DNA from: an uncultured delta proteobacterium
GTDB lineage: Bacteria > Desulfobacterota > Binatia > UBA9968
Length of the DNA stretch: 64,000 nt
NCBI GenBank assembly: GCA_963728565.1
Contig: CAVSLC010000010.1
Location: forward strand, 32,001-96,000
Reading direction: 5' to 3'
The translations under genes and the position numbers were made by a program. The notes beneath the pieces were generated by a model. It ran no database searches. It was not told the DNA's origin and saw nothing but the letters and a program-made list of their open reading frames with translations. Of the stretch, positions 4,314 to 54,493 are shown piece by piece (positions within the stretch are counted from its first letter, which is position 1; every line of letters begins with the position of its first letter).

Positions 4314-4328
4314 GCAACCAGCATGCCA
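4314..4328 (-). promoter_or_regulatory. sigma54 -24/-12 promoter (TGGCATGCTGGTTGC)
   Basis: GG-N10-GC, 26 bp upstream of the ASRT start. Confidence 0.75.
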
Positions 4329-4530
4329 GTACGAGTTGCGATTCGTCTTCAAAAAAGTGCTTTGTCCCAGGCGGTATTCACCCTCGCGCGAGACGGCAGC
4401 CCCGTCGTGTGCTAAGCTGAAGTGTCGTATCTTGATTTATCAATAAGATAGTTAAATGATGACCCAGATTAAAGAGATCTAATCGAAATTTGCATCAACC
4501 CGGTGAGTTGACTGCAAAGATAAGGGCGCA

Positions 4531-6141
4531 ATGTCTGCGAACAAACCAGCGATTCAAAGCCACACTTGTCCGCCGCCGCTCGATGAGAAAGTCCTGGTGT
4601 CACTGTACCAAGGGATTCCTGAGGCGATCATCGTTATCGAGTTTAAGTCGCGCTGTATCGTTTATTGGAATGAGGGAGCAACCTTGTTGTTTGGCTATTC
4701 GGCTCAGGAGGTCTTGCAGCAGACCACCGAACGGCTGTATCTCGACAAAAATTGGTTCGATCGTGTCTATCAAACCTCGATTCCCGACCTTGAGCAAAGC
4801 GGCTGCTGGCGCGGTGAATGGCAGTATCGCCGCCGTGACGGATCGCTTTTTGCCGCGGAAGCAACGTGCACGCTTCTGCAAACTGATAAAGGCGTCTACG
4901 TCGTTAAAGTGATTCGAGAAGTTACCGAACGCAACGAGGCTGAGAAGATTATTCTCCAATTGAATCAGCGTTTGGCGCAGCGCGTGATCGAACAAACATC
5001 CGAGTTGATGTCGAAAACAGAGGAGCTTCAGCACGAGGAGGCGCAACGCAAGCAGGTCGAGCAAATCCTCGGGAATTTGCTCCGCAACATCACCAACTAT
5101 GCGGTACTGATATCCGATGCCGATGGCCGCATCGTTGACTGGAACCGCACCGCAACCCGCATTCTGGGCCGCGAGAGTGACGATATGACCGACCAGCGGT
5201 TGTCGGTTTTTTTTGCCGATCAGGAAGGAAGACAGGCGTTAATAAAAAAGGCGCTTGATGAGGCTAGTGATCAAGGAACATTTCGCGACTACCAACTGTT
5301 GGTGCGCAAAGACGGCTCACAGTTTTATGCCAGAGTCATTGTCTTTGCGCTACGTGACGATGCCGACGGTTTGCAGGGCTTCTTGATTTTGTTGCGCGAT
5401 GACTCGCAGGAACGAAATTTGAGGGAGAAATTACGGGAAAAGGAACATCTGGCGGCGATTGGAACCGCGGCATCCATGCTGGCGCATGAGATTGGCAATC
5501 CGCTGAACGGCATTTCCACCACAGTCCAACTGCTGGAGCGATTTATTAGTCGAGAGGGCACCAAAGCTCCGCCGCACATGCTCGCCACGTTGAAGGATTT
5601 GAAGAGTGAGATCGACCGGCTTACTTCTCTGCTGAACGAATTCAAAACCATTGCCCGACCTCAGAAACTTAGTCTTCAGCCGGTGCAACTCGCCAGCGTC
5701 GTTCAAGAAACGATCTCGGGGTTGGATATGGACGGCAAAGAGGACGTTCAGATTGTGTGGGAGTGCTCGCCGGATCTGCCGCCAATACGCGGCGACGGGG
5801 CAAAACTCAAACAGGCGTTACTCAATCTTTTTAAAAATGCCGTAGAGGCGATGCCATACGGCGGTACTTTGTCTGTAAAAGGATACTTGAGCGGCGGCTC
5901 GATCTGCATCGATGTCAGTGACACCGGTATGGGTATTCCCGATGATCTTAAGGTTTTTGATCTGTTCAGCTCGACCAAGCCGCACGGCACCGGGTTAGGG
6001 TTGTTCATTGTGCAGCAAATTATCCTTGCCCACGATGGCGTAGTTTCTTACGCCAGCACAGTAGGCAAGGGCACCACCTTCCACCTGACCTTACCAGCCA
6101 ACGTGACAGCGGAAGCCGCTGCGGACATTCGCCGCAACTAG
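4531..6141 (+). CDS. Cytoplasmic two-PAS sensor histidine kinase
   Basis: Two PAS/PAC regions (WNEGATLLFGY...RRRDGS; WNRTATRILG...VRKDGS), H-box AHEIGNPL, N-box NLFKNAVEA, DTGMGI, GTGLGL. Confidence 0.93.
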   Translation: MSANKPAIQSHTCPPPLDEKVLVSLYQGIPEAIIVIEFKSRCIVYWNEGATLLFGYSAQEVLQQTTERLYLDKNWFDRVYQTSIPDLEQSGCWRGEWQYRRRDGSLFAAEATCTLLQTDKGVYVVKVIREVTERNEAEKIILQLNQRLAQRVIEQTSELMSKTEELQHEEAQRKQVEQILGNLLRNITNYAVLISDADGRIVDWNRTATRILGRESDDMTDQRLSVFFADQEGRQALIKKALDEASDQGTFRDYQLLVRKDGSQFYARVIVFALRDDADGLQGFLILLRDDSQERNLREKLREKEHLAAIGTAASMLAHEIGNPLNGISTTVQLLERFISREGTKAPPHMLATLKDLKSEIDRLTSLLNEFKTIARPQKLSLQPVQLASVVQETISGLDMDGKEDVQIVWECSPDLPPIRGDGAKLKQALLNLFKNAVEAMPYGGTLSVKGYLSGGSICIDVSDTGMGIPDDLKVFDLFSSTKPHGTGLGLFIVQQIILAHDGVVSYASTVGKGTTFHLTLPANVTAEAAADIRRN

Positions 6142-6172
6142 CTTCCGCCGACACGCTGCCAAAATCCTTGGA

Positions 6173-6604
6173 TTACTCGGAGCCGAGGCGACCTTCAAGC
6201 TCTTCGTCTTTGAATGGCAGTCGCTCGACATCTCCATTTGTCCCTAGCATTCGCTGTCTCTTCTCCACGGCGGTGGCGCAATCGATGCAGAGCGCTGCTG
6301 TCGGCATCGCCTTAAGCCGACCGGTACCGATATCATTGCCGCATCGTTCACATTCGCCGAAAGTTCCCGCATCGATTCGTTCAAGAGCATCGTCGATCTG
6401 GCGCAGCAGGGTCTGGCCCCGCTCCGTCAGGCGACTCTCCAAGCGAGTCATGCGATCCTTTTGCGCGCTCTCTTCGAGCTCGCTCTCACGATCTTCTAAC
6501 GATGGTTCGACTTCGTTCTGGCTGCCGACAATTTCTTGCAGCAGCAGAGATGATCGTTTGCGCCGCAAAGTCGCGCCGAGTTCCTTGGCCAATCGGTTGT
6601 TCAT
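6173..6604 (-). CDS. TraR/DksA C4 zinc-finger protein
   Basis: Coiled coil then IDDALERIDAGTFGECERC...RLKAMPTAALCIDC; start chosen at MNNR (GGGAGA RBS). Confidence 0.88.
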   Translation of the reverse strand: MNNRLAKELGATLRRKRSSLLLQEIVGSQNEVEPSLEDRESELEESAQKDRMTRLESRLTERGQTLLRQIDDALERIDAGTFGECERCGNDIGTGRLKAMPTAALCIDCATAVEKRQRMLGTNGDVERLPFKDEELEGRLGSE

Positions 6605-6809
6605 GGAAGTTCTCCCTTGGTTCGCATGATGAAGGATGAGCGCCGAGATGGTAACTGCGACAACGTCACGAGTCATCCTTCTTAGTTATTTTTGCCTCGT
6701 GTCGCCGCTCTCACCGCAAGCCTGATTGCGCGCGCAACGTTAGGCTGCTTCGAGTGCGCGTTACTTGGTTTCAAACGTAAAGCTTCCTCTAAAAGAGGGA
6801 GGTTCGTGT

Positions 6810-6824
6810 GCAAAGCGAGGGCCA
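6810..6824 (-). promoter_or_regulatory. Probable sigma54 promoter (TGGCCCTCGCTTTGC)
   Basis: GG-N10-GC about 200 bp upstream of the DksA-like gene; -24 box less canonical. Confidence 0.55.
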
Positions 6825-7079
6825 AGGATAGGCAGGCGCGCCTTGAAGCTCGTGGTTCATCACTGATGATACAGAAGCACGAAGTGCAGCGCTTAGGGAA
6901 TCAGGCTTACGTGTTTCAACGTCCTAGAGTTGGCATACTAGTCGAGTTCGTCGTCCCACGAGTGGGAAGAGAACATCCGGCGCAGTAATTTGTTTGAGTT
7001 CTCCGTTCTTGTGAAGCTCAACAGAACACAACTGCCTCTAGGCATCAAATGCCTCCACGAAAAAAAATTTTACTCATCG

Positions 7080-7094
7080 TGGCATTTCAATTGC
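7080..7094 (+). promoter_or_regulatory. sigma54 promoter (TGGCATTTCAATTGC)
   Basis: GG-N10-GC about 50 bp upstream of ATG 7145. Confidence 0.78.
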
Positions 7095-7144
7095 GTTTGT
7101 CTATGCCGCAGTACGGTAAAGATAATCAGACAAGGGGCAAACAG

Positions 7145-7906
7145 ATGGGAACGATCGCCGGAATTTTCAATTCGAGTAAGGAAGCCGAACGGGCCTTTTC
7201 GGCGCTGCAAACTGAGGCGGGCTTTAGCAATGAAGAAATTGTGCTGCTGGCTCCCGGAAGCTCCGCAAAAGAGCTCGATGCGGTCCCGACCGATGAAGGT
7301 GAGCAGCCCGGTATGGGACGGGCAATCGGTGGCGTGGTTGGCGGCGCGGTTGGGCTCGCCGCCGGAAGTGTTGTCGCGAACCTGGTTTTGCCGGGTGTCG
7401 GTACCATACTGGCGATTGGGTTAGGTGCCGGAGCGTTTGGAATCGGCGGCGCAGTGGCTGGCGCGGCAACCGGCGGCGCGCTTGAGAACCAGCTTTCATC
7501 GGGGCTGCCCAAGGATGAGCTGTTCTTTTATGAAGATGCTTTGAGGCAGGGCCGCACCGTACTGATTGGCACGTCCACAGACGACGAGGCGATTGAAAAA
7601 GGGCGGTCTGCGATCGAACGAAATGGCGCTGAGAGCATCGATGCTGCGCGTGACAAGTGGTGGATCGGACTGCGTGATGCAGAAGCAGCGCAGTTTGATG
7701 CACCGGACGCCTTTCGAGAAAACGAAGGTCTCTATCGCAGTGGCTTTGAAACAGCTCTCCATCCTGATTACCGCGGTAAAGCCTATGAAGCTGCGGTACC
7801 GAAGCTGCGCGAGTTGCGGCCGGATATTTGTGAGGACGAAACGTTTCGCCGCGGTTACGAGCGCGGTCGCGCCTATTACGCCGCCCGAGAAAAGACTACC
7901 CCATAA
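7145..7906 (+). CDS. General stress protein (YflT/17M-like N-terminus, glycine-zipper membrane segment)
   Basis: TIAGIFNSSKEAERAFSAL...GFSNEEI, long Gly/Ala hydrophobic zipper, GLPKDELFFYEDALRQGRTV. Confidence 0.75.
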   Translation: MGTIAGIFNSSKEAERAFSALQTEAGFSNEEIVLLAPGSSAKELDAVPTDEGEQPGMGRAIGGVVGGAVGLAAGSVVANLVLPGVGTILAIGLGAGAFGIGGAVAGAATGGALENQLSSGLPKDELFFYEDALRQGRTVLIGTSTDDEAIEKGRSAIERNGAESIDAARDKWWIGLRDAEAAQFDAPDAFRENEGLYRSGFETALHPDYRGKAYEAAVPKLRELRPDICEDETFRRGYERGRAYYAAREKTTP

Positions 7907-8153
7907 TACTCGCCGCACGACGATATCGCCAGGAAGTGCGCTGGAAGCCAGTCGTCTCATACATCATCCGATGATCCGCCTTTCTTTGCCGCGTAGAAGC
8001 GCGCTCAGGCCCTGCATGTAGCTGATCTGAGAAAATGTCTCGTTCGCTGTGTCGCAATCGCTACAGCTCGACCGCTATCGTGTCCGTTAGCTGAACTCAG
8101 CGCCCTAAGGTGTTCAATAGGTGAGTCGCCGGAATGCGCTACCTCGGCGGTGC

Positions 8154-8168
8154 TGGCATATCGATTGC
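8154..8168 (+). promoter_or_regulatory. sigma54 promoter (TGGCATATCGATTGC)
   Basis: GG-N10-GC 47 bp upstream of ATG 8215. Confidence 0.8.
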
Positions 8169-8214
8169 TCTACTTACCTCGGTGCGATCGAACACAACCC
8201 GAGGAGGAATCAAT

Positions 8215-8988
8215 ATGAAAGTGCGCTATCTGATGTTAACAGCTGCTGTGCTAATCGCCCCTGCGCCGGTACTGGCCGCAGACGGCGCCGCCAAAAAAGG
8301 CGCTAGCGATCAAAGCCGTTACAGTGATCGTGACATGAGAAAAAATTATGACGATGAAGAGCAGAAACTGGAGCAGGCGCTGAAGGCCGGACAGGACAAG
8401 AACTTTTACCGCCGCGAGCTGGAGAAGATGGGTTATCAAATTACCTCAATTAATTATGACAAACCGGATTATGTCGAATACGAGATCGTCAAAGGCAACA
8501 ATTCCTATGAGGCACAGCTCGATTTTGACAAAAGCGGTAAAGCCACAAAAGTCGACATTGCTCCGAATTTGTGGCGCACGGATTCTACCAAGGCCGCTTT
8601 GCGAGGAAAAAAGGTTTCCGCGCCAAAGGGCGCGATAGCTAACCCTGAACGTTACAGCGACCGGGATCGGCGCAAGGCTTACGACAGCGAGGAGGAGAAG
8701 CTGGAGAAGACACTGAAGACCGGCGAAACCAAGCAGAGCTATCGGAGCCAGCTCGAGAAGATGGGTTACAAGATCACGTCCGTCAATGCTGACAAGCCCG
8801 ATTACGTAGAGTACGAGATCGTCAAAGGCAACGACACCTACGAGGTGCAGATCGATTTTGACAAGAACAGCGGCAAGGCCACCAAAGTCGACGTGACTTC
8901 GAATTTGTGGCAAGCGGAGGCAACGGACAAAGCGCTGAGCCAGAGACGAGAAAAAAGTGACAACCGGCAGGCGAAGCCGGAGAAATAA
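8215..8988 (+). CDS. Secreted protein with two tandem PepSY-like repeats
   Basis: GGAGGA RBS, signal peptide ending VLA, two ~105-aa copies of RYSDRD..YD.EE.KLE..LK.G....LEKMGY.ITS.N.DKPDYVEYEIVKGN..YE.Q.DFDK.GKATKVD. Confidence 0.75.
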   Translation: MKVRYLMLTAAVLIAPAPVLAADGAAKKGASDQSRYSDRDMRKNYDDEEQKLEQALKAGQDKNFYRRELEKMGYQITSINYDKPDYVEYEIVKGNNSYEAQLDFDKSGKATKVDIAPNLWRTDSTKAALRGKKVSAPKGAIANPERYSDRDRRKAYDSEEEKLEKTLKTGETKQSYRSQLEKMGYKITSVNADKPDYVEYEIVKGNDTYEVQIDFDKNSGKATKVDVTSNLWQAEATDKALSQRREKSDNRQAKPEK

Positions 8989-9158
8989 CAAGCTAAGCGG
9001 TGACCAATTGCCAGTCGCGGACGAACGGTTCTGAAAGCGGGAGAGTTGCGCGGCGGGACTTTAACAGAGCGCGCAACGGCGGGTCCGAATTGACGATGGC
9101 ATGAACAGCTATGCCGAAGCGATAGGAGCGTCTGAATCAGCAACCATGGAGGACGAAC

Positions 9159-9311
9159 ATGAGCACTCTTCTAGTCATCATTCTTATACTCTTGCTTATC
9201 GGCGCTCTCCCGACATGGCCGTACAGCGGCGGTTGGGGATATTATCCTAGCGGCGGTCTTGGCCTTATATTATTGATTATCATCATCCTAGCGTTGATGG
9301 GCCGCCTATGA
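9159..9311 (+). CDS. DUF3309 small membrane protein (50 aa; absent from ORF track)
   Basis: MSTLLVIILILLLIGALPTWPYSGGWGYYPSGGLGLILLIIIILALMGRL; GGAGGA RBS. Confidence 0.92.
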   Translation: MSTLLVIILILLLIGALPTWPYSGGWGYYPSGGLGLILLIIIILALMGRL

Positions 9312-9356
9312 TCGCTAACTGAATGCCGCTGGCGACGGTGACGCCATTTTCTGATT

Positions 9357-10934
9357 ATGAAGAGGGTTCTAGTTTGGCTCGTAGCCATTCTCGGTTCGCT
9401 TGTCGTAGTGGTAGTTATCGCCGCCTTCTTCCTTGATGAACCGTTACGCCGCCGGACAGAAGCCAAGATCAATGCGGCATTAAAAGGCTATACCGTCCGA
9501 ATCGAAAAGCTGGATTTTCACCCGATCGGATTTAGTCTGGATCTCGAAAATTCAGTGATTACGCAGGATGCAAACCCCGAGCCCGCCGTTGCCGAAATCC
9601 CGAATTTGACCGCCAGCGTTAACTGGAGAGCTTTGCTCTCCGGCCACGTGGTGGCGGATTTCGAAATAAACAACCCGAAGCTGTTTCTCAACTTCAAGCA
9701 ATCCCAGAACGAAATAAAAGACGAAACTCCGATCAACGAGCGAGGCTGGCAGGATGCCGTGCAGGCTATCTACCCGCTCAAGATCAACGAGTTCGTCATC
9801 ACTGGTGGCGAGCTTACCTATGTCGATCAAGGCCAGTACCGTCCGCTCGAACTCACCAATGTTAACCTCACGGCCTATAATATTCGCAACGTCAGATCTC
9901 AAGAAGGCGAATATCCATCGGAGGTTTATATCGACGGAACCGTATTTAAGAACGGCAAAATTGTTCTGCAGGGAAACGCGGACTTCCTTGCGGAACCGCA
10001 CATTGCCATCAAAGCAGAAATCCAGGCGGAGCAAATCGAGCTGGATTATTTCAGGCCGATAACGGAACGTTACAATTTCTCAGTCCGCCGCGGCGTGCTC
10101 AGCACCGCTGGTACTATCGAATACGCGAAGAACAAAAAAATTCTCAGTGTGCCAACGCTCAACGTCCGGAATCTGTTGGCGGATTACGTGCATACCAAGC
10201 CTGCCACCTCTCCGACCAAGGAACTGTCGAAAAAGGCAGATAAGGTCATCCGAGAGCACAGCAACGAGCCTTCCTTTGAATTGGATGTCAACGACGTCAA
10301 TATCAGCGACAGCGAGTTGGGGATCATCAATAAGGCAAGCGAGCCCCAGTACCGTTTGTTTGTCACTGGCGCCCAGGTCAAAGTTCAAAACCTCAGTAAT
10401 CAAGGAGAGGATGGCGCCGCGACGATCACGGCAAGCGGCAGATTTATGAATTCGGGAAAAACCCGTCTGGTGGCGCGCTTGAGACCCAAAGGGAAGAGTC
10501 CCAACTTCGACCTGCAATTAGCCATCGATCAGTCGGAGCTCAAAGCCCTCAATCCTTTGCTCAGAGCCTATGTTGGCGCCGACGTTGTCGCCGGCCAGTT
10601 CTCCTTTTACTCGGAGATCGCGGTGAGTAATGGATCGATCAACGGCTACGTGAAACCATTGTTCAAGGAAGTCGACGTTTACGATCCGAAACAAGATCGT
10701 AAGAAGGGGATCTTCACCAAACTCTACGAAGGCATTTTAGGCGGGCTCTCATGGATTTTGGAGAATCGCCCGCGCGAGGAGGTCGCTACTACCACCAAAA
10801 TTTCCGGCAAACTTTCAGATCCGCAAACCAGCGTGGCCGACATGATCCTGGGTCTTGTGCAGAACGCTTTCTTCAGAGCGATACTTCCCGGGTTGGAACG
10901 GGAGATCGAAATCGGCGGCAGGAAAGGGCGCTAA
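9357..10934 (+). CDS. DUF748 (AsmA-like) domain protein
   Basis: N-terminal TM anchor, beta-rich body, C-terminal GYVKPLFK...VQNAFFRAILPG motif. Confidence 0.82.
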   Translation: MKRVLVWLVAILGSLVVVVVIAAFFLDEPLRRRTEAKINAALKGYTVRIEKLDFHPIGFSLDLENSVITQDANPEPAVAEIPNLTASVNWRALLSGHVVADFEINNPKLFLNFKQSQNEIKDETPINERGWQDAVQAIYPLKINEFVITGGELTYVDQGQYRPLELTNVNLTAYNIRNVRSQEGEYPSEVYIDGTVFKNGKIVLQGNADFLAEPHIAIKAEIQAEQIELDYFRPITERYNFSVRRGVLSTAGTIEYAKNKKILSVPTLNVRNLLADYVHTKPATSPTKELSKKADKVIREHSNEPSFELDVNDVNISDSELGIINKASEPQYRLFVTGAQVKVQNLSNQGEDGAATITASGRFMNSGKTRLVARLRPKGKSPNFDLQLAIDQSELKALNPLLRAYVGADVVAGQFSFYSEIAVSNGSINGYVKPLFKEVDVYDPKQDRKKGIFTKLYEGILGGLSWILENRPREEVATTTKISGKLSDPQTSVADMILGLVQNAFFRAILPGLEREIEIGGRKGR

Positions 10935-10965
10935 AACAGCTTGGTTACTGAATGAACACCGGTGA

Positions 10966-11763
10966 TTAAGGCTTTTCTTTTTCCTCCGCAGCTTCCGTCC
11001 ATTGCGCTACCTCTTCCGCTGACATGATGTTCAAACGGGCGTCTTTATAGCCCCAATTCTCTGTGTCGACGCGGAATTGTGAACGGGAAAGTAGCGGTCC
11101 CTGGCATATCTGTTCGTCGGCGAACGATTCATCGAACTCCCTTTGAAGCAGAGCGACGAGCCTCTGTTTCACCCAGCGAGGAATTTTTCCCCGTTCGGTG
11201 GGATAGATGAACTCAAACAGGATCACGTGACTCAGAAGCACTCGCCAATGATCGCCAAACAAGCCGATTAACCGTTCCCAGTCTATCGCATCGCTTTGCG
11301 TTCGAATCAGGTGGGCGACATCGGCGCCGTCATAGCGTTCCCGCTCCATGATGAAGGCTTTCTGCCAGATCATTTCTTCGGGAGCGCACAGGAACACCGG
11401 CATGTCGAACACTTCACTGGGGACGGCGCGGTCGAACCAGCTCTCCGTGACTTTGCACAGCCCGTTTCCCGAGCTAAATATCAGATCGACGTACTCGGTC
11501 CGACCGTGGTTGTAAACTTTGCCGAGCCAATGCGAGAATGTCAGCTCGGTGGGATAGCCAGGCTGGGCTAGCGCCTCGAGCGCCGCATGGATGTGTTTTT
11601 CGAGTACAAAGATATCCAGGTCTCTGACTTCTCTCAGGATCCCCGTAAATCGTTGCAGTGCGAACCCGCCGCTGATTAGAAACGGTATTTCCGCCTGCCG
11701 CAGGACATCCAAAACGTCTCGATAAAAGATGTGATTTGATTTCTGTTCAGGCGCGGTTTGCAC
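10966..11763 (-). CDS. Pol-beta-superfamily nucleotidyltransferase of unknown substrate
   Basis: FLISGGFAL...RDLDIFV (GG-x-DxD), VDLIFSSGNG, KAFIMERERYDGAD. Confidence 0.82.
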   Translation of the reverse strand: MQTAPEQKSNHIFYRDVLDVLRQAEIPFLISGGFALQRFTGILREVRDLDIFVLEKHIHAALEALAQPGYPTELTFSHWLGKVYNHGRTEYVDLIFSSGNGLCKVTESWFDRAVPSEVFDMPVFLCAPEEMIWQKAFIMERERYDGADVAHLIRTQSDAIDWERLIGLFGDHWRVLLSHVILFEFIYPTERGKIPRWVKQRLVALLQREFDESFADEQICQGPLLSRSQFRVDTENWGYKDARLNIMSAEEVAQWTEAAEEKEKP

Positions 11764-11767
11764 AATA

Positions 11768-12532
11768 TCAACCTTTCATTTGGGGCGAGCCGTTAACCCG
11801 GGGTAAATTCAAAATGCGGTAGGGAAGTTGGCCGGGAAAAGTGTATTCAAGAAGTTTCATTGCAACGTTATAAACCGGCACGCCGGTTTTAGTTTTTCCT
11901 TCAGGAGCGCCATGATGCGCGTGACCGTGAAAGGCAGCGGTCACGGAAAATCGATTTAACGGCTCCTCCAGCCTACTCGACCCTAAAAAGGGATAAATCT
12001 CCAGCGGTTCTCCCACAACCGTCGCGGCAATCGGCGAGTAGTGCAGCAAAGCGATTCGATGCGTCGTGCGCAGCTTGGCCAAAGCCGATTCGAGCTTTAG
12101 AGCCTCGTCCACAGCCTCATGCACAAATCTCTTCATTATGGCCTCGCCCCAGGGCGCAAGCAGCCGTTCGCCAAAGCCACCAGCGAAACCCTTGACTCCA
12201 GCAAACCCGATCCCCTCTATCTCGCATGCCTCGCCATCAAGCAGCAGAACGCCGCCGTCGGTCAGTATCTTTCGCACCTCGTCGATCTTGCCGGACTCGT
12301 ATTCGTGATTACCCATTACAGCGATGACGGGGATCCGTTTAGTGAGCTCGCTTAATTCTTTTACCAGCACGTGCGCTTCTTCAGGCAGGCCGTAATCCAC
12401 CAAATCACCACACAGCAACAGTATGTTGGCGTTCTCGCTGATCTGGGAAAACAGCGCCCTGAATTTGCCGGAGAAATTACTTTTACAATGGAGGTCGGCG
12501 ATAGCGGCGATGTGAATCAAGTTCTCGGCCAT
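11768..12532 (-). CDS. Calcineurin-like metallophosphoesterase
   Basis: ADLH, CGDL, GNHE, LLHY, HGHAH motifs. Confidence 0.92.
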   Translation of the reverse strand: MAENLIHIAAIADLHCKSNFSGKFRALFSQISENANILLLCGDLVDYGLPEEAHVLVKELSELTKRIPVIAVMGNHEYESGKIDEVRKILTDGGVLLLDGEACEIEGIGFAGVKGFAGGFGERLLAPWGEAIMKRFVHEAVDEALKLESALAKLRTTHRIALLHYSPIAATVVGEPLEIYPFLGSSRLEEPLNRFSVTAAFHGHAHHGAPEGKTKTGVPVYNVAMKLLEYTFPGQLPYRILNLPRVNGSPQMKG

Positions 12533-12663
12533 GCATGCGCCCTTCGTTTACTCGATCGCAGTTGTCTCTGGATCTGATCGCGACAGAACAGCGGCCATCG
12601 AGCTATACCGCCGATGACCGCCGGGGTAGGGGATAACCAAAGAGCCTCTCTGCGCCAGCTTGA

Positions 12664-12861
12664 TTATAGCGTGCGTTCCCAATCGCCGACTTGACGCTCA
12701 GCTTCTTCCTTGCTCAGACCGTATTGCTTCTGAATCTTACCGACCAGCTGGTCGCGCTTGCCCTCCACCTGATCTAACTCGTCATCGGTAAGTTTGCCCC
12801 ACTGTTCTTTAGCCTTTCCTTTGAATTGCTTCCAGTTGCCTTTCAATTGATCCCAGTTCAT
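12664..12861 (-). CDS. csbD: CsbD/YjbJ general stress protein
   Basis: MNWDQLKGNWKQFKGKAKEQWGKLTDDELDQVEGKRDQLVGKIQKQYG; AGGAGG RBS. Confidence 0.96.
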   Translation of the reverse strand: MNWDQLKGNWKQFKGKAKEQWGKLTDDELDQVEGKRDQLVGKIQKQYGLSKEEAERQVGDWERTL

Positions 12862-12905
12862 AGCAGGCCTCCTGTGTAGGTTGATTTCCAATAGGGGCCA
12901 AGTAG

Positions 12906-12920
12906 GCAATCGACATACCA
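12906..12920 (-). promoter_or_regulatory. sigma54 promoter (TGGTATGTCGATTGC)
   Basis: GG-N10-GC 45 bp upstream of csbD. Confidence 0.78.
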
Positions 12921-13071
12921 GGAGCATTTGAGACGATCCGTAAACGGCTGACACAATTTCCCGTCCCGGAAGTGCCGCCGGGAAGTAATTGTATGTCTTG
13001 GAATCGGCACATAGTGTCTCGGAGCCGAATAGAGCAGCGCCGTACCACGCTGTCTTGGAGCCCAGAAAAAC

Positions 13072-13236
13072 TTACTCTGGCGCCGAGGGTTTAGCTCCCG
13101 ACGTTTTTCGGTTGCGACAATCCTTTTCATGCTGCTCTGCTTCCGCCAATGAATTGAATTTCTCGCCGCATGAACGACATGGAAACTCTTTATCCTCGAT
13201 GTCTTTGCGCTCGGGTACACGTGGATCATTTTTCAT
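13072..13236 (-). CDS. 54-aa C2HC zinc-finger microprotein (absent from ORF track)
   Basis: MKNDPRVPERKDIEDKEFPCRSCGEKFNSLAEAEQHEKDCRNRKTSGAKPSAPE; GGAGA RBS; own sigma54 motif. Confidence 0.78.
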   Translation of the reverse strand: MKNDPRVPERKDIEDKEFPCRSCGEKFNSLAEAEQHEKDCRNRKTSGAKPSAPE

Positions 13237-13261
13237 ATTAATCTCCGCGGCTACGTGACGT

Positions 13262-13276
13262 GCAACCGATATGCCA
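13262..13276 (-). promoter_or_regulatory. sigma54 promoter (TGGCATATCGGTTGC)
   Basis: GG-N10-GC 26 bp upstream of ATG 13236. Confidence 0.8.
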
Positions 13277-13310
13277 CGACCGAGGACCGATCCTGCGCTG
13301 GTGCTCGCAT

Positions 13311-13325
13311 TGGAATGGCTTTTGC
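13311..13325 (+). promoter_or_regulatory. sigma54 promoter (TGGAATGGCTTTTGC)
   Basis: GG-N10-GC, divergent from the previous site, upstream of 13496. Confidence 0.65.
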
Positions 13326-13495
13326 GGCGTGTTTATTGAGCCGCTCTCACGACGTGATGTACTACGTAGCCTGTGCTCCTAGGACGGCAGGCCTATGAAG
13401 ACGGCTAGAGGTATGTAATGGTGTGCGCTGGTGATTCCAGTCGAGAGTTTGATAGAAGACATTTAAATGTTTTGAAGTGAAAGGCGGAGGCTAAC

Positions 13496-13864: not shown

Positions 13865-13951
13865 TTGCTACTGTCGCTAGTTCCAGTTTTTGGTTGATGA
13901 TGTTCCGAACAGTGAGAAAGAACGACGAGATCAAAGCGCAAAGGATGTCAG

Positions 13952-14545: not shown

Positions 14546-14560
14546 TGGAATATCTTTTGC
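14546..14560 (+). promoter_or_regulatory. sigma54 promoter (TGGAATATCTTTTGC)
   Basis: GG-N10-GC 65 bp upstream of ATG 14625. Confidence 0.7.
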
Positions 14561-24700: not shown

Positions 24701-24718
24701 CTGGATATCAGTAGCGGC

Positions 24719-46507: not shown

Positions 46508-46684
46508 GTGTCACGGCCGGTTACGGATAGAGCCTCATAGACCCCGATAGCGACTTCAGACATCTTCGCAGAGTTTCCAGCCTAGCAGAACAATTCGTCC
46601 CTTTGATGCACCTTGCATAGATCGTGTTTCGCAGCCCTGCGACATTGATCGAGCTGCTTCGAGCTAAATGCTTGAGCTAAGCGG

Positions 46685-46699
46685 TGGCACAGCCGTTGC
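46685..46699 (+). promoter_or_regulatory. sigma54 promoter (TGGCACAGCCGTTGC)
   Basis: GG-N10-GC 88 bp upstream of ATG 46787. Confidence 0.8.
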
Positions 46700-46786: not shown

Positions 46787-47368
46787 ATGGAGAACCAACC
46801 AAGCCAAAGCGCCACGGGTGTAAGCGACGGCGGCGCCGTCCTTATCAATAAGGCGAAGAGCGAGGCCGCCGGAGTGGCGCAGGATGTGAAGCGGCAGGGT
46901 CAGGAACAATTCGAAGCGCGTAAACGGACGGCGGCGGACCAAACTGAAAAGCTGGCCGGCGTGGTCGACCGAGTCTCCGCGGAACTCAAAAGTCAGAATC
47001 AAGAATCATTGGCTGATTACGCGGGTCAGTTGGCAGGCAGTATGAAGGATTTCGCCGAGAGCTTGAGGCAGCGGAATCTCGACGAGCTGGTCAAAGATAC
47101 CCAACAACTGGCGCGCCGCAATCCCACTCTTTTTCTCATGGGAAGTGTAGCGGTCGGCATAGCGCTTTCGAGGTTTTTCAAGGCATCGAGCCAGCGTAGC
47201 GGCGCCGGCCGGTACGACGAATCTGAGCTCTACGGCTCGAGCCAATCGGCCGTACAACCGATCACCTTTGAGTCGCGGCCGTCGGTAATATCCGAATCAG
47301 CGACGACAACACCCTCGTCAACAGCGGAGAGCCCGTCCTTCGCTGACGATCTGGAGAAAGGAGTTTGA
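46787..47368 (+). CDS. DUF883/ElaB-like helical protein with membrane anchor
   Basis: AAGGAG RBS; ARRNPTLFLMGSVAVGIALSRFFKAS. Confidence 0.75.
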   Translation: MENQPSQSATGVSDGGAVLINKAKSEAAGVAQDVKRQGQEQFEARKRTAADQTEKLAGVVDRVSAELKSQNQESLADYAGQLAGSMKDFAESLRQRNLDELVKDTQQLARRNPTLFLMGSVAVGIALSRFFKASSQRSGAGRYDESELYGSSQSAVQPITFESRPSVISESATTTPSSTAESPSFADDLEKGV

Positions 47369-47370
47369 TC

Positions 47371-47808
47371 ATGGCAAAACAACCGCCATTTCAAGCTACG
47401 CCGGCAAGCGAATCAGCTCGCGTCGACCGGGAACCCGATTCGACAGCCGGCCTGCTAAGTCGTCTCATGGGGGAAGTGTCAACGTTGTTTCGCAAAGAGA
47501 TAGCCCTGGCAAAGGCAGAAGTGTCCGAAGCCGCTTCGGAAGCAAAAGCCGGAGCCGTCAGCCTGGTAGCTGGCGGGGCAATTGTTTTCGCCGCTATTCT
47601 CGTCCTGCTTGGCGCAATTGTCCTGCTGCTGGCCCAAAGGATGGAGCCTTGGTTGGCAGCTCTCATCGTCGCCGTGGTGGTAGGGGTCATTGGCTTTGTG
47701 ACGATCCAAAGCGGCAAGAAGAAGTTAGATCCATTGTCTTTCAAGCCTGAGCGGACTCAGGATGCGCTGCGCAAAGACAAGGAGATGGTTCAAAGGAGGG
47801 CGTCGTGA
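47371..47808 (+). CDS. Holin-like two-TM protein (YqjE/YhjD, phage holin 3_6 family)
   Basis: STLFRKEIALAKAE, two TM helices, KPERTQDALRKDKE. Confidence 0.85.
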   Translation: MAKQPPFQATPASESARVDREPDSTAGLLSRLMGEVSTLFRKEIALAKAEVSEAASEAKAGAVSLVAGGAIVFAAILVLLGAIVLLLAQRMEPWLAALIVAVVVGVIGFVTIQSGKKKLDPLSFKPERTQDALRKDKEMVQRRAS

Positions 47809-48635
47809 GCGACATAAATAACGCAAGCAACCTCAGAGATGATGCGCGAAAAGATCCGGCAACCCTGGAACGAGAGATCGATCAGACCCGGGCTAACATG
47901 GACCGGACGCTCGGCGCATTGGAACGCAAGTTTTCGCCGGGTCAACTGTTGGATCAGGCAATGGAGTTCGCTCGGGAGAATGGCGGAGAGTTCGCAAACA
48001 ATCTCGGCCGCTCCATTAAGGAGAATCCGGTGCCGGCGCTGTTGACCGCAGTGGGACTCGTCTGGATGGTCGCCTCGAGCAATCGCCCGAGATCGCCGGT
48101 CGCCGATGCTTACGATGACCGCTATGCACGGGATGCTGCCAACGCCGTCGATTTCGACGATACAGGCTATGAGGACGATGCCGGCGATCAGAGGGAAGGG
48201 TTGACCGATAAAGCGCAACGACTCAAAGCCTCTGCCGAGGGAACCTTGAGTGAAGCAGGGCAACGGGTAAAGTCCGCCGCCGCGCAAGCTCGACAGAAGC
48301 TGACAGGCACTAAAGATACAGTGTCAGCGGGACTGAGAAGAACTTCGGGCACCGCACAAGTCCAAACGCAACGAGTGCGTGAGAGTTTCAACAGTCTTCT
48401 CACTGAGCAGCCGCTGCTCCTGGGAGCTTTGGGGATTGCTGTCGGAGCCGCCATCGGCGCTGCTTTGCCGGCGACCGAGCAAGAGGATCGGCTGTTCGGT
48501 TCGGCGCGCGACAAAGCCCTCTCCGAGGTCAAGGAGCGTGGGACCGAAACGTATGAGCAGGTGCGCGACAAGGTTAATGCTGTCGGCCAAGAGGCAAAGC
48601 AATCGATCTCCAATGCGGTCCGGGAATCCACTTAA
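47805..48635 (+). CDS. DUF3618 domain protein
   Basis: LEREIDQTRANMDRTLGALERKFSPGQL, ENPVPALL, EQPLLLGALGIAVGAAIGAALP.TEQEDRL.G. Confidence 0.85.
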   Translation: MSDINNASNLRDDARKDPATLEREIDQTRANMDRTLGALERKFSPGQLLDQAMEFARENGGEFANNLGRSIKENPVPALLTAVGLVWMVASSNRPRSPVADAYDDRYARDAANAVDFDDTGYEDDAGDQREGLTDKAQRLKASAEGTLSEAGQRVKSAAAQARQKLTGTKDTVSAGLRRTSGTAQVQTQRVRESFNSLLTEQPLLLGALGIAVGAAIGAALPATEQEDRLFGSARDKALSEVKERGTETYEQVRDKVNAVGQEAKQSISNAVREST

Positions 48636-48764: not shown

Positions 48765-49667
48765 ATGCAACGTAAGTCTATTTTGCAGTTTCTAAAAACC
48801 ACCATCAACGAGTGGGTCGAAGCAGAACCGTTCCAGCTGGCGGCCGCATTATCGTATTACACTCTATTTTCTCTTGCACCACTGCTGCTTATCGCTATCG
48901 GAGTCGCGGGGTTCGTTTTTGGCAGAGAGGCTGCGCAAAATCAGATCGTTGAAACGCTCCAGGGAATGATTGGGCAAGAGAGCGCCCAGACCGTTCAGGA
49001 AATGATCCAGACCTCAAACGAAAAACCGAAAACCGGAATGATCTCTACCGTCATCGGCTTTATCGCCCTTATGTTCGGCGCCGGCGGGGTCGTGGGTCAG
49101 CTGCAAACTTCGCTGAACAAAATTTGGGAAGTGACACCGAAACCGGGCCAGGGCATCTGGGGCTTCTTGCGGCAGCGGTTCTTCTCTTTTGCGATGGTGC
49201 TAGCAATCGGGTTCTTGCTGTTGGTCTCGCTTGTCGTGACCGCTGTTCTGAGTAGCTTCACGTCAATGCTGAGCAGCTTTTTAGGCGACGCGACATTCGT
49301 GGCTCATGCCATTGATATCCTGGTTTCCTTCGGATTTGTCACGTTACTATTTGCCCTGATTTATAAGTACGTGCCGGATGTAGAGATCCAGTGGAGAGAT
49401 GTCTGGGTCGGCGCCGCGTTAACTTCGATACTGTTCACCATAGGGAAGTATCTCATCGGACTCTACATCGGAACCAGCGGCGTCAGCTCGACCTTCGGCG
49501 CCGCGGGTTCGCTGATTACGATTCTCGTCTGGGTCTATTATTCATCTCTGATCTTTTTTCTTGGCGCCGAATTTACCAGAGTGTATGCGACCCAATATGG
49601 ATCCGGCGTTGCCCCTGCTAAAAACGCTCAACCGATGGATGCTGCGCCTCAGTCCGCGAACGCATGA
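48765..49667 (+). CDS. YihY/BrkB family membrane protein
   Basis: LAAALSYYTLFSLAPLL, LQTSLNKIW, FGAAGSL..ILVWVYYSS.IFFLGAEFT. Confidence 0.93.
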   Translation: MQRKSILQFLKTTINEWVEAEPFQLAAALSYYTLFSLAPLLLIAIGVAGFVFGREAAQNQIVETLQGMIGQESAQTVQEMIQTSNEKPKTGMISTVIGFIALMFGAGGVVGQLQTSLNKIWEVTPKPGQGIWGFLRQRFFSFAMVLAIGFLLLVSLVVTAVLSSFTSMLSSFLGDATFVAHAIDILVSFGFVTLLFALIYKYVPDVEIQWRDVWVGAALTSILFTIGKYLIGLYIGTSGVSSTFGAAGSLITILVWVYYSSLIFFLGAEFTRVYATQYGSGVAPAKNAQPMDAAPQSANA

Positions 49668-50577: not shown

Positions 50578-50769
50578 CTACCCCCTTTTAAGTTGAAGTT
50601 CGTCTAAATTAATCTCGCGCGTTTCGAGCCCAAGTTCTCGCGCCTTCTGATTGCATGGATGACACACAAGCATATTGAGCAGTACGCCACCCGGATCCTC
50701 GCTGATCACACGGTAGGCTTTGCCCGTAAGCGTTCGCTCGCAGTGATCGCAAAATAATTCCCTGGCCAT
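50578..50769 (-). CDS. 63-aa CxxC...CxxC zinc-finger microprotein
   Basis: MARELFCDHCERTL...MLVCHPCNQKARELGL. Confidence 0.7.
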   Translation of the reverse strand: MARELFCDHCERTLTGKAYRVISEDPGGVLLNMLVCHPCNQKARELGLETREINLDELQLKRG

Positions 50770-50783
50770 GATGAATACGGCGA

Positions 50784-50798
50784 GCAAGGCATATGCCA
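50784..50798 (-). promoter_or_regulatory. sigma54 promoter (TGGCATATGCCTTGC)
   Basis: GG-N10-GC only 15 bp upstream of ATG 50769. Confidence 0.72.
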
Positions 50799-52156: not shown

Positions 52157-52904
52157 CAGTCGCGCCGGCGCTTGCGCCGATGATCCGATCGGTAATCCAC
52201 TGTAGTAGGAATGATGTAGAAGTTCGCTGCCACGACACGTCGGATAGGCCGTGATCTGCGTCTTTAATCAAACGATGCGTTACCGACCGTGCCCGGGTGA
52301 AAGCGGCCAAGTAATTAGCGATCACCGGATGCGGCACGGTATTGTCCCGCTCGGACTCGACGATCAGCACATCACCGGGAAACGCCGCGCACGCGCGCAG
52401 CGCCCGATTTTCCTCCGGAGCCACGGCCCGCCTGCGGTATGCGCAAAAGTCCGGATCTTCATGAAGCTTGCGCTTGGGCAACTCCCAGCCGGCATCGTTG
52501 TAGAGGGCCGGCGCGCGCAGCGCGACCCAGCGCACCGCTCGCCGAGAGGTCATTATGGCTGCGAGATACGCGCCATAACTGCTGCCGACAACTCCTAGAT
52601 CTGTGGGGTCCAAGCCAGGTTGGCTCGCCAATACATCATAGGCGGCCAAGAGGTCCCTTAGATTGTCTTCACGCGAAACGACCTCTCGTTGTCCATCGCT
52701 ACGCGCGTGACCGCGCAGATCGAAGGTCAAGCAGATAAAACCCAGCTCGGCGACGGCGCGCGCCCGATTGAGGTATTGCTGTTGATTGCCGCCCCAGCCG
52801 TGGACAAACAGCACGGCGGGTCCCGCGCTGACGCCGGCGATCAGCCGGCCCTCGATCCGTTGATCGTCAACCGCGATCTCGATCGGTTCATCATGAATTG
52901 TCAT
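52143..52904 (-). CDS. Alpha/beta hydrolase
   Basis: FVHGWGG, FDLRGH, GSSYG nucleophile elbow, ESERD, ADHGL. Confidence 0.9.
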   Translation of the reverse strand: MTIHDEPIEIAVDDQRIEGRLIAGVSAGPAVLFVHGWGGNQQQYLNRARAVAELGFICLTFDLRGHARSDGQREVVSREDNLRDLLAAYDVLASQPGLDPTDLGVVGSSYGAYLAAIMTSRRAVRWVALRAPALYNDAGWELPKRKLHEDPDFCAYRRRAVAPEENRALRACAAFPGDVLIVESERDNTVPHPVIANYLAAFTRARSVTHRLIKDADHGLSDVSWQRTSTSFLLQWITDRIIGASAGATDARE

Positions 52905-54039
52905 ACGGCTTGACCTGAGAATATTTGGTGATCGGTCCGACCCGATCATCGATTCCACGGAAATACACCACCGCATCCGGCGGCGCTTGGTTATCGCCAT
53001 AGACTTCGACACATGCTGCGCGCACCGCGCATAGGCTCGGGTCTGCGCGAAAAGCTTCAAGGGCGGCAATCTCCGCAGCGCTGGCACCGCCGATGCGCCA
53101 AGATTGTTCGAGTACGCCGCACGAGCGGCGCCCGTCATCTGCGACGACCTGAGCAACATCGTAGTTGCGCCGGGAGGCTAGCCATCCCGCAAAGGCCCGT
53201 GACGCGGCGGCTTCGTAGGTGCGCGCGTTGTTTATCGCCCATCGCGCCTGTGGCGGCAGCTCGAGTCTGAGCAGATCATCGTAGTCGCCGCGCACTACAA
53301 TTAAATCCGAGCCGCCGTAAACTGTGACGTCGCGGTTGTCTCTGGTCAACAACTGCCTGCCATAGTAGGTCGCCAACAGGTCCGCTACAGAAGTCTGGCC
53401 GACGCTGTAGGTTTCAATCCGATCGAAATTTTGTTCGATCACCGCCCCATAAAGGGCGAGTTCCGCTGGATCGATGTTGTCGAGAAGCGCCTCCAGATCC
53501 GCAGCGGACGTGATCACGGTCTGGCCGCGCCCGCCGATGCCACACGCCGGTTTAAAACGGGCGCGGCCGCGCGCCAGCACCCGTGCCGTTGCGAGGCGCA
53601 GGTCAGCAGGTGCGAATGCGGAAAAGCCAAAAAGAACCACACCCTGAACGCTGCGCGCGAACTCATCTGACCAACCTTCGGGAGCGAACGCGTCGCTCGA
53701 CACTAACGGGTGTGTGATGGTTTTGGTTGCAGCGAACGGATACGGAACGACGCCGCCAAACAAGTCATGATGATCGCGAATACCGAGTTTTCGGATTGAC
53801 TCAGATCCTGTGAGAGTGTCACTCGGAACGAAATACAACGGACCGGCGTAGCGGCGCGCCGCGTCGTAATCTCCGGCGAACTCATAATCCTTCAATGCCG
53901 CGAGCTTTGCCGCAATCATCGAGCGTGTGACGCTCTCGTGTTGAGCCGGCGGCTCGCAGGCACGTTCGGTATATTGAACCACTGCGCCTCGCGGGCACGA
54001 CGAACGAGTCCCGATGTCATCTTTTGTGAGAATCGTCAT
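52891..54039 (-). CDS. DUF3182 family protein (ATP-grasp-like)
   Basis: DLFGGVVP..FAATKTITHPL, RFKP..GIGGRGQ, TYSVGQ, YGGSDL, SRRNYDV, VLEQSWRIGGAS. Confidence 0.82.
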   Translation of the reverse strand: MTILTKDDIGTRSSCPRGAVVQYTERACEPPAQHESVTRSMIAAKLAALKDYEFAGDYDAARRYAGPLYFVPSDTLTGSESIRKLGIRDHHDLFGGVVPYPFAATKTITHPLVSSDAFAPEGWSDEFARSVQGVVLFGFSAFAPADLRLATARVLARGRARFKPACGIGGRGQTVITSAADLEALLDNIDPAELALYGAVIEQNFDRIETYSVGQTSVADLLATYYGRQLLTRDNRDVTVYGGSDLIVVRGDYDDLLRLELPPQARWAINNARTYEAAASRAFAGWLASRRNYDVAQVVADDGRRSCGVLEQSWRIGGASAAEIAALEAFRADPSLCAVRAACVEVYGDNQAPPDAVVYFRGIDDRVGPITKYSQVKPYDNS

Positions 54040-54478
54040 TTTTCTTTGCAGCGCTTGTGAATGGTCCGCAGCAATCGCATGCCTCTTCTGCGCCGCAAGC
54101 GCACGCCGGCTAAACTGATCGAGTGTCCTAATGTCGGCGCAAAACGAGGGCCATCACAATACTCACGACGCCGCTTCGAATCACCAGGGCCGTGTCCTTA
54201 AATCGGCACACGCCGCATCGGCGTGATCGATCGCGTAATTGAAACATGATTGGTGGTTAATAGTTTCTCCTTTGGGACGATCGAGTAGAAGATGATCTTG
54301 ATCAAGGATCGCTACGCGTAGCAGCATCATTGTTGTTAGTGCTTCGGCATCATCGCGGTCGCAGACAAATCCCGAACGATTGTATGTACCTTCACCAGCA
54401 GCCCGCTTGCGCGTGAGGCGCACACGTCAGATGATCATTGATTCGCCATGTCCGATGTGTGTGCGCGATGTATCCCAG

Positions 54479-54493
54479 TGGCATATTTGTTGC
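54479..54493 (+). promoter_or_regulatory. sigma54 promoter (TGGCATATTTGTTGC)
   Basis: GG-N10-GC 137 bp upstream of the glycan operon start. Confidence 0.78.

Follow-up and report, generated by a model that had tools for sequence, protein, structure and literature searches.

A cluster of putative sigma-54 promoters in front of stress-type genes in an uncultured Binatia bacterium

Introduction

We analysed a stretch of 64,000 nucleotides from the genome of an uncultured soil bacterium of the Binatia (Binatota), here called the window (G000:C10:32001-96000), in which copies of the motif TGG-H-A-Y-N5-TTGC, resembling the -24/-12 promoters of sigma-54, stand in front of small stress-type genes. 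The genome, G000, is a metagenome assembly of 4.53 Mb in 28 contigs, rated 80.55% complete.

Promoters of the sigma-54 class carry GG and GC 10 bases apart in a sequence like TGGCAC-N5-TTGC, a spacing too compact for the -35/-10 pair of the sigma-70 family, and transcription starts 11-13 nt after the GC. They need the rpoN product and an ATP-hydrolysing activator bound to an upstream activating sequence (UAS) roughly 80-150 nt away, and they are fully off until that activator fires. The three well-studied general stress responses, RpoS, SigB and EcfG, all rely on sigma-70-family factors whose activity is set by partner switching or proteolysis. A regulon of this type answers as a whole to one master regulator and is induced by several unrelated stresses or on entering stationary phase. 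A sequence-only reading of the window had proposed that this lineage runs its general stress programme through sigma-54.

Sigma-54-type sites in the window

We used a strict motif, TGG-H-A-Y-N5-TTGC, and a loose one, TGG-N8-TTGC, with expectations taken from 100 shuffles. The window contains 16 strict matches where 1.02 are expected (the richest shuffle has 4; 0/100 reach 16), and the earlier estimate of under one chance hit comes close to this shuffle mean. The loose motif has 27 matches against 10.09 (0/100 shuffles reach 27). All 14 sites listed by the sequence-only reading were found again at the same coordinates and on the same strands, and 13 of them fit the strict motif, 6810(-) being the exception. 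The list was nevertheless incomplete: it missed the strict sites 19480(+), 21548(-) and 34862(+) and left out the weak site 54139(-).

With the best start codons, chosen by downstream reading and a relaxed scan, all 16 strict sites are intergenic and directed at a gene, as had been claimed. Each has its start codon 14-175 nt past the end of TTGC, and most starts have a Shine-Dalgarno sequence. Among the gaps reported before (15-206 bp), the 206 nt given for 54479 evidently rests on another ATG, the true one at 54630 lying 136 nt away. The other 11 loose matches (27 minus 16), apart from 6810 and 54139, are coding or face no gene; their number is about that expected by chance (~10), and they were treated as chance.

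Genes behind the sites

The leftmost strict site, TGGCATGCTGGTTGC (4314-4328, minus strand), is followed after 25 nt by the ATG of an ASRT-family (Anabaena sensory rhodopsin transducer) gene at 3917-4288(-), which adjoins and is divergent to a PAS histidine kinase gene at 4531-6141(+), the pair spanning 3917-6141. This kinase is a possible sensor and solely a candidate link to the promoters, as is a hybrid histidine kinase that lies in two frames at 31421-33347(+), REC-PAS-HisKA followed by HATPase-REC. The variant site TGGCCCTCGCTTTGC (6810-6824(-)) precedes a DksA/TraR-type zinc-finger gene (6173-6604/6676(-)) with a gap of 133 nt if the ATG is at 6676 or 205 nt if it is at 6604, and is divergent to the strict site TGGCATTTCAATTGC (7080-7094(+)), itself 50 nt before a conserved gene for a 253-aa hypothetical protein (7145-7906(+)). 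Between them lies a candidate UAS at 6921-6967(+), made up of GTCCTAGAGTTGGCA (6921-6935) and GTCCCACGAGTGGGA (6953-6967), 113-159 nt upstream of the 7080 site. Calling the 253-aa protein 'YflT-like' was considered and dropped: Pfam and NCBIfam gave nothing significant, and the Atlas value for YflT was 0.87, under the 0.9 line, with the nearest clusters unnamed. The next site, 8154-8168(+), is 46 nt before a 257-aa gene (8215-8988(+)) of no significant family, whose product has a hydrophobic N-terminus and, judged by eye, a putative signal peptide.

Three sites are packed around a CsbD gene (12664-12861(-)). One, TGGTATGTCGATTGC (12906-12920(-)), is 44 nt before CsbD itself, which is followed on the same strand by genes for a metallophosphoesterase (11768-12532) and a nucleotidyltransferase (10966-11763); we counted it as intergenic because the 123-aa mechanical open reading frame (ORF) enclosing it collides with a 54-aa zinc-finger gene that has better support and a Shine-Dalgarno sequence. 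The latter gene (13072-13236(-); weak DUF7128 match, below cut-off) has its own strict site 25 nt upstream at 13262-13276(-), back to back with TGGAATGGCTTTTGC (13311-13325(+)), which is 170 nt before a gene at 13496-13864(+) with weak YtxH and apolipoprotein-like matches, followed by one at 13952-14398(+) with a weak DUF3618 match, all below cut-off. A further site, 14546-14560(+), is 64 nt before a 94-aa ORF (14625-14909(+)) and then a PLD-family gene (15128-16687(+)), the first gene here being uncertain since the gene caller preferred an antisense ORF.

Further to the right, the site at 19195-19209(-) is 41 nt before a PRC-barrel gene (18392-19153(-)), that at 21548-21562(-) is 77 nt before a phosphoribosyltransferase-family gene (20769-21470(-)), and TGGTACGTGTTTTGC (25119-25133(-)) is 94 nt before a 101-aa gene (24719-25024(-)); next on that strand come a topoisomerase IB gene (23359-24504), which places a bacterial type IB enzyme inside this operon, and an alpha-amylase-family gene (21737-23362). 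The site at 30166-30180(-) lies 104 nt before a GT4/GT1 glycosyltransferase gene (28967-30061(-)), and TGGAACGACATTTGC (34862-34876(+)) lies 175 nt before a 156-aa gene (35052-35522(+)), after which come a GT1 gene (35551-36396) and UDP-galactopyranose mutase (36507-37676). The strict site TGGCACAGCCGTTGC (46685-46699(+)) is 87 nt before an operon that starts with a 193-aa gene (46787-47368) and continues with Holin-X (47371-47808), DUF3618 (47805-48635) and BrkB (48765-49667) genes; a candidate enhancer, TCGCA-N4-TGCGA, lies at 46629-46642(+), 56 nt upstream of this site. The rightmost strict site, 54479-54493(+), is 136 nt before the ATG at 54630 of an NAD-dependent epimerase gene, split by a frameshift (54630-54770, 54700-55743) and followed by sugar-nucleotide genes at 55740-57932 and 57966-58940. 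Divergent to it is the weak variant TGGCCCTCGTTTTGC (54139-54153(-)), 99 nt before a DUF3182 gene (52891-54039(-)). The variants at 6810(-) and 54139(-) are near-identical, TGGCCCTCG(C/T)TTTGC (that is, TGGCCCTCG-Y-TTTGC), and each is 270-340 nt from a divergent strict site; the two may represent a weaker subclass of promoter or resemble each other by chance.

Two window sites stand unusually close to their genes: TGGAATCATTTTTGC (19480-19494(+)) is 14 nt before a receiver-only response regulator gene (19509-19886(+)) and 50784-50798(-) is 14 nt before a 63-aa cysteine-rich gene (50578-50769(-)). Together with a site on another contig (G000:C5:35168-35198), these make three strict sites 13-14 nt before an ATG that has no Shine-Dalgarno sequence. 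Since sigma-54 transcription starts ~12 nt after the GC, the messages from all three would be nearly leaderless, and those from 19480(+) and 50784(-) are possibly so. The 63-aa gene and the gene at G000:C5:35196, alike as judged by eye, share the ~13-nt geometry.

Three genes are split over two overlapping frames, namely the epimerase (54630-54770/54700-55743), the hybrid histidine kinase (31421-32731/32679-33347) and an NtrC-type activator (G000:C21:100200-101849). These may be single-base indel errors of an assembly in 28 long contigs, not true pseudogenes.

The motif across the genome

The whole genome has 135 strict matches, of which 93 lie between genes and face one, 13 lie between genes but face away, and 29 are coding; a second classification gave 96, 12 and 27. 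The prospect that the motif would be as frequent in coding or antisense positions, which would have spoken against a promoter, was therefore not borne out (93-96/135 intergenic and gene-facing). The excess vanishes when the spacing is changed: one base shorter gives 47 matches (6 gene-facing, 4 facing away, 37 coding) and one base longer 49 (5, 4 and 40, respectively). Likewise, TGGCAT-N5-TTGC occurs 69 times, against 8 with N4 and 12 with N6.

We used 79 gene-facing sites for the analysis of flanking bases and enhancers, with 3941 upstream regions as background. The consensus over gene-facing sites is TGGCA(T/C)-N5-TTGC-(G/T)-C, T being commoner than C at the sixth position. The two bases after TTGC, which lie outside the search pattern, are non-random, with A in 2/79 and 1/79 gene-facing sites, and since other flanking positions hold ~0.1 bit, the sites are not copies of a repeat element. 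The median gap from site to start codon is 62.5 nt genome-wide.

The sites are unevenly spread. The window holds 16/135 strict matches (12%) in 1.4% of the genome (Poisson 2.5e-10), and contig C10 as a whole has 29, with 27 of these within 24.5-181.5 kb.

Stress-type genes among the targets

We took all CsbD, BON, HSP20 and PRC genes of G000 and asked which have a strong site (score >=15 of 16) no more than 300 nt upstream of themselves or, for operon members, of the leading gene. A site was present for 2/2 CsbD, 5/9 BON, 2/9 HSP20 and 1/2 PRC-barrel genes, which amounts to 10/22 for the four families together compared with 94/4067 confident genes (2.3%; Fisher 3.7e-11). The claim that genes typical of SigB, RpoS and EcfG regulons lie behind the motif is thus upheld as an enrichment.

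For a joint family scan against Pfam, and solely for that, the 82 first genes behind strict sites were aligned. BON is represented four times, HSP20, CsbD, HTH_17, SRPBCC, NusG-like, DksA/TraR and PG_binding twice each, and every other family once. Classical sigma-54 targets also stand behind the motif as single cases: P-II, 2-oxoglutarate dehydrogenase E1 and a Flp-type pilin, the last recognised from its N-terminal sequence.

Glycan and possible compatible-solute genes cluster with promoters at three places, window 21737-30061, G000:C10:134408-136489 and C19:127671-129776. They comprise alpha-amylase-family, HAD phosphatase, GT4 and GlgE genes, a weak mannosylglycerate-hydrolase-like match below the cut-off, and a GlgX-like gene read from its N-terminus.

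Activators, candidate enhancers and other sigma factors

A search for the sigma-54 interaction domain gave 22 matches in G000, corresponding to 18 genes for bacterial enhancer-binding proteins (bEBPs), as two genes were split in two matches each and the two weakest matches were dropped. The G(A/S)(F/Y)TGA loop is present in 16 of the 18. Most are ~450 aa long with the AAA+ domain from about residue 142, and one checked in full has the order REC-AAA+-HTH_8. We also looked for an activator without a DNA-binding domain that could act on all promoters from solution. The sole candidate, G000:C21:100764-101849 (361 aa), was rejected as a frameshifted normal NtrC-type gene whose lid and helix-turn-helix continue in the other frame. 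Elsewhere, at G000:C18:40813-43657, two identical 61-aa genes with Flp-pilin-like N-termini (read by eye) and identical strict sites, TGGCATTAGAGTTGC, flank an activator gene (C18:41523-43004) in opposite orientation.

Neither k-mer enrichment nor enumeration of inverted dyads found a k-mer or inverted dyad common to the promoters; both gave subset motifs only, and a single shared enhancer was accordingly rejected. The first subset motif, GTCCCA, occurs in 18/79 sigma-54 upstream regions against 284/3941 in the background (p 1.4e-5). GTCCCA and GTCCTA boxes lie mostly on the promoter's strand, seven of them between -119 and -137, and the block CGTCCCACGAGTGGGAAG at 6953-6967 is kept in otherwise differing orthologous regions upstream of the 253-aa gene. 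The second, TCGCA-N4-TGCGA, is found in 3/79 sigma-54 upstream regions and 0/3941 background regions, at window 46685, at G000:C23:242919 (an Hsp20 gene) and at C23:256629.

An NtrC-type activator gene on the same contig as the window (G000:C10:132847-134199) stands behind a strict site at C10:131622, with two boxes at -89 and -58. Among ten activator loci of at least 70% identity, its own included, eight have a strict site no more than 1.5 kb upstream, and in six of the ten GTCC(C/T)(A/G) boxes lie no more than 200 nt from that site. In all, 10 boxes occur in ~2,000 nt against ~1.5 expected, by our own arithmetic for uniform composition. We propose that this activator recognises (C/T)GTCC(C/T)A boxes, which precede both its own operon and the 7080 promoter, and would thereby regulate itself.

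In at least seven genomes of the family (G133:C124, G141:C132, G134:C59, G010:C163, G130:C30, G147:C98 and G028:C38), a comparison of coordinates places a paralogue of this NtrC-type activator and a gene for an RpoD-like sigma factor of ~520-550 aa tail to tail, no more than ~100 nt apart. In G000 an activator and an RpoD-like sigma gene are 3.6 kb apart on C10.

Of the sigma-70 family, G000 encodes one RpoD above the equivalog cut-off, two RpoD-like factors (C5:115317-116111 and C10:127699-129261) that reach neither the RpoD nor the RpoS cut-off, one RpoH-like factor (C13:69215-70279) above the sigma-32 subfamily cut-off, and 9 further unclassified Sigma70_r2 matches with no region-3 match. 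No sigma factor of G000 exceeds the RpoS equivalog cut-off; the EcfG/PhyR pair was not searched for. Given these other sigma-70-family factors, sigma-54 is not the sole candidate for a stress sigma factor. The RpoD-like gene at C10:127699-129261 has a strict site 60 nt upstream, which might suggest a cascade from sigma-54 to a second sigma factor. Conservation of such a cascade was rejected, as just 1/29 paralogue loci in relatives has a site >=15, at -302, and the idea is kept only as a lead; three relatives' paralogue loci carry TGGCAY-N5-TCGC near-misses.

Conservation in relatives

The closest public records to a window protein are metagenome-assembled genomes titled Candidatus Binatia bacterium or uncultured delta proteobacterium, and more distant homologues of a window protein come from records titled Rokuibacteriota, Methylomirabilota, Thermodesulfobacteriota and Acidobacteriaceae. 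One record titled Verrucomicrobiia bacterium (L035) has the same coordinates as L015, which is G046, placed by genome search in the window's family, so that the taxon in its title may be wrong.

The pattern TGGCAY-N5-TTGC exceeds its reversed-pattern control in 40/40 relatives from the family (29-170 against 6-34), as it does in G000 (95 against 13). In a phylum-level sample of 61 genomes G000 ranks top for TGGCAT-N5-TTGC, with 69 matches and 40 in the next, a loose comparison in that other lineages may prefer TGGCAC. The regional arrangement also recurs: in G030, from another genus, the 40 kb around the activator orthologue combine 14 strict sites with orthologues of nine or more genes of the C10 hot spot (24-135 kb).

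For the 253-aa gene we compared 19 public loci and an order-level sample of 11 orthologues, five records being common to both sets. A strong site lies at -29 to -67 from the ATG in 10/19 public loci, including records titled Rokuibacteriota (L041) and Methylomirabilota (L045), and one further locus scores 14.5; in the order-level sample the strict motif precedes 4/11 orthologues. Four of the loci have a perfect site on the other strand too, which indicates divergent promoters, and L029, L030 and L039 carry a perfect antisense-strand TGGCAT-N5-TTGC at the place equivalent to 6810(-). The motif lies upstream of the 193-aa gene in 4/4 relatives' loci examined and of the PRC-barrel gene in 2/4 orthologues. 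For CsbD homologues in family relatives a sense site is present in 9/29 loci, and an antisense site in 0/30.

Words sampled from the window's sequence were also compared with RNA. In 24 soil metatranscriptome runs, 7-11% of the sampled words are contained, and contigs from four runs, compared with positions 4201-14200, cover parts of several genes there at 93-99% likeness, which places their origin in relatives. Several bins with promoters have little or no contig cover, and uncovered parts prove nothing. The start of one contig falls at 7120, ~14 nt past the start predicted for the 7080 site, from which no conclusion was drawn.

Discussion

The clustering of the motif is genuine and found across the lineage, a set of sigma-54 promoters is its best reading, and the cargo is clearly biased towards stress-protection genes. 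The identification proposed by the sequence-only reading is borne out by spacing, orientation, position, conservation upstream of orthologues, the bEBPs and the presence of rpoN in all relatives searched. From these we infer that the promoters depend on sigma-54, and from the cargo, that stress would induce them. As several activators appear to share the work, the data fit activator-specific modules better than sigma-54 as a general stress switch. We therefore favour, with a probability of roughly 0.68, a sigma-54 stress network with many activators, organised in activator-specific modules beside sigma-70-family stress factors, and not a single regulon.

In such a network, the window would be part of a sigma-54 promoter hot spot, with 16 strict and two weaker promoters, each fronting a short operon. 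The cargo would consist of small stress-type proteins (CsbD, PRC-barrel, weak YtxH- and DUF3618-like proteins, the Holin-X/DUF3618/BrkB operon, zinc fingers and the ASRT-family protein), together with sugar and envelope enzymes and a receiver-only regulator. Sigma-54 RNA polymerase would be held on these promoters as a silent closed complex until NtrC-type activators (receiver, AAA+ ATPase and Fis-type helix-turn-helix), once sensor kinases have phosphorylated them, attach to enhancers ~50-160 nt upstream and use ATP to open the complex. One module might comprise the activator C10:132847-134199 and the GTCCCA-type boxes at its own operon and at 7080.

Of the sigma-54 machinery, 18 bEBPs are present; the same search that found rpoN in 20/20 relatives (including 7/7 congeners and 12/12 high-quality genomes) did not find it in G000, 80.55% complete, with the models for its DNA-binding (PF04552) and core-binding (PF04963) domains. 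The 3.5-kb rpoN loci of two congeners (L002, L003) have no DNA match in G000 either. The neighbours of rpoN in G007 (L002), read by eye as LptB-, PtsN- and RapZ-like (lptB-rpoN-ptsN-rapZ), match only distant paralogues in G000 or nothing. Because the whole neighbourhood is without a counterpart, the result fits a piece of the genome missing from the assembly and does not imply absence from the organism.

Along with the missing rpoN, a number of observations weigh against the reading we favour. Many of the genome's targets have no family assignment, and six first genes in the window match no family, so that 'stress' rests on a subset of targets; 12/22 stress-family genes, including 7/9 Hsp20 and 4/9 BON genes, are without the motif, which counts against a single regulon. 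The GTCCCA box is found at a minority of promoters and is mostly not palindromic, and the two activator orthologues of genus g15 (G030, G050) lack any strict site at a distance of 1.5 kb or less. Conservation upstream of orthologues, which the earlier proposal implied, holds in part of the loci, up to 4/4 for the 193-aa gene, but a strong site is missing from 20/29 CsbD loci and 9/19 loci of the 253-aa gene, the strict motif is missing from 2/4 PRC-barrel orthologues, and the 40-kb region of G050 that matches the one in G030 has only 1 strict site. Gene positions come from our own crude dicodon-model caller (5128 calls, 84% coding) and not from curated annotation, and the RNA material consists of contigs from soil metatranscriptomes, in which starts, strand and level are not readable and DNA may occur.

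It is very improbable that some other DNA-binding factor recognises the motif, or that the pattern merely reflects chance or base composition. The lack of rpoN in the assembly would suit this idea, as would the base after TTGC, G or T where the textbook consensus has A or T, but a one-base change in spacing abolishes the excess, GG-N10-GC is too short for a sigma-70-family -35/-10 pair, the sites face genes 96 times against 12 facing away, and the sigma-54 contact loop in 16/18 bEBPs and rpoN in 20/20 relatives point the other way. Alternatively, the promoters could be true sigma-54 promoters with no common stress function, in a region rich in accessory, tightly silenced genes. No family has more than four members among the 82 first genes, the targets include sugar-nucleotide enzymes, HTH_17 proteins, NusG paralogues, P-II and a pilin, and six in the window are without any family. 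Against this stand a 35-fold enrichment in four independently chosen stress families and the co-occurrence in the island of compatible-solute-type and glycan genes (HAD phosphatase, the weak, below-cut-off mannosylglycerate-hydrolase-like match, alpha-amylase family and GlgE), which make a mere collection of silenced genes quite improbable.

Closer to the original proposal, sigma-54 could head one general regulon for stress and dormancy, replacing RpoS, SigB or EcfG and probably working through one dedicated activator. The high density of promoters before CsbD, BON, PRC-barrel and like genes, the joint presence of island and activator gene in G000 and G030, the family-wide occurrence of the trait and the lack of a G000 sigma factor above the RpoS equivalog cut-off all speak for it. 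With two RpoD-like factors that miss both the RpoD and the RpoS cut-off, an RpoH-like factor, 18 bEBPs, at least two candidate enhancer types and no common one, classical sigma-54 targets behind the same motif, and Hsp20 and BON genes among the 12/22 without it, we judge a single regulon unlikely. A broader claim can be framed around the same data, namely that in Binatia, perhaps also in Rokubacteriota and Methylomirabilota, a general stress and dormancy programme is wired through sigma-54, with a few NtrC-type activators integrating the signals, as a fourth architecture beside RpoS, SigB and EcfG. Dozens of CsbD-, BON- and PRC-type genes would then have their own -24/-12 promoter, and one activator, autoregulated via GTCCCA boxes, would be genomically linked to an RpoD-like sigma gene. 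We regard this as doubtful and put it forward tentatively. If it were true, the all-or-none logic of sigma-54 could serve a broad protective programme, and such logic may be of advantage to soil bacteria that grow slowly and alternate between activity and dormancy. The analysis provides concrete candidates for promoters, enhancers and activators in an uncultured phylum.

Comparison with known systems

In Myxococcus xanthus, a delta-proteobacterium-like organism, a cascade of many bEBPs working with sigma-54 governs the passage into a resistant resting state; in G000, no fruiting-body or spore genes were identified. The tightly off, stress-induced character expected here is shared with PspF/psp and other enterobacterial single sigma-54 stress operons (mentioned in PMC4641369), but those are single operons, whereas G000 would have dozens of promoters, and no PspA/PspF pair was identified.

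Desulfovibrio vulgaris Hildenborough, as described in PMC4641369, has many NtrC-type activators with few -24/-12 promoters each and 5 stress operons, DVU3305 being labelled 'general stress response'. The likeness lies in the many activators and in the stress operons among the sigma-54 targets. On the same account, metabolism and transport dominate in D. vulgaris, with only 5 stress operons, whereas in G000 CsbD-, BON- and PRC-type genes are a major class, packed in an island and known from sequence alone. In Campylobacter jejuni and Helicobacter pylori, RpoN helps the cells to survive stress, and dedicated stress sigma factors are said to be absent (PMC3196706, PMC3755968). These accounts concern rpoN-mutant phenotypes in small genomes with few sigma factors, and differ from G000 in gene content and number of activators. 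Sigma-54 is already known to control individual stress operons, and in Campylobacter and Helicobacter survival under stress is known to depend on rpoN.

A survey of sigma-54 regulons from 2025 (PMC12316311) predicts targets of the UspA type in Planctomycetia, and its main text names no CsbD, Hsp20, Binatota, Rokubacteria or Methylomirabilota. The preprint describing the Binatota has 0 occurrences of 'sigma' or 'regulat'. We found no literature linking Binatota, Rokubacteria or Methylomirabilota with sigma-54, nor any on regulation in Binatota. Nor did we find sigma-54 promoters described in front of a large CsbD/BON/PRC-type set, in a search that did not extend to the supplements of PMC12316311 and PMC4641369, where CsbD-, Hsp20- or BON-type targets may be listed.

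The RpoN-RpoS pathway of Borrelia burgdorferi (PMC1976401, PMC4014564) places sigma-54 and one bEBP atop a stress and adaptation programme, mainly via rpoS. Like Borrelia, G000 has one RpoD-like sigma gene (C10:127699-129261) with a strict site, a feature found in 1/29 paralogue loci of relatives. Unlike Borrelia, where the published account has sigma-54 acting mainly through rpoS, our analysis gives most of the G000 stress genes their own sigma-54 site. With the SigB, RpoS and EcfG regulons (background also in Francke 2011, PMC3162934) the G000 set overlaps in content, in CsbD, BON/OsmY-type, Hsp20 and PRC-barrel proteins. It differs from them in that its promoter class would need an ATP-driven activator and would allow no basal transcription.

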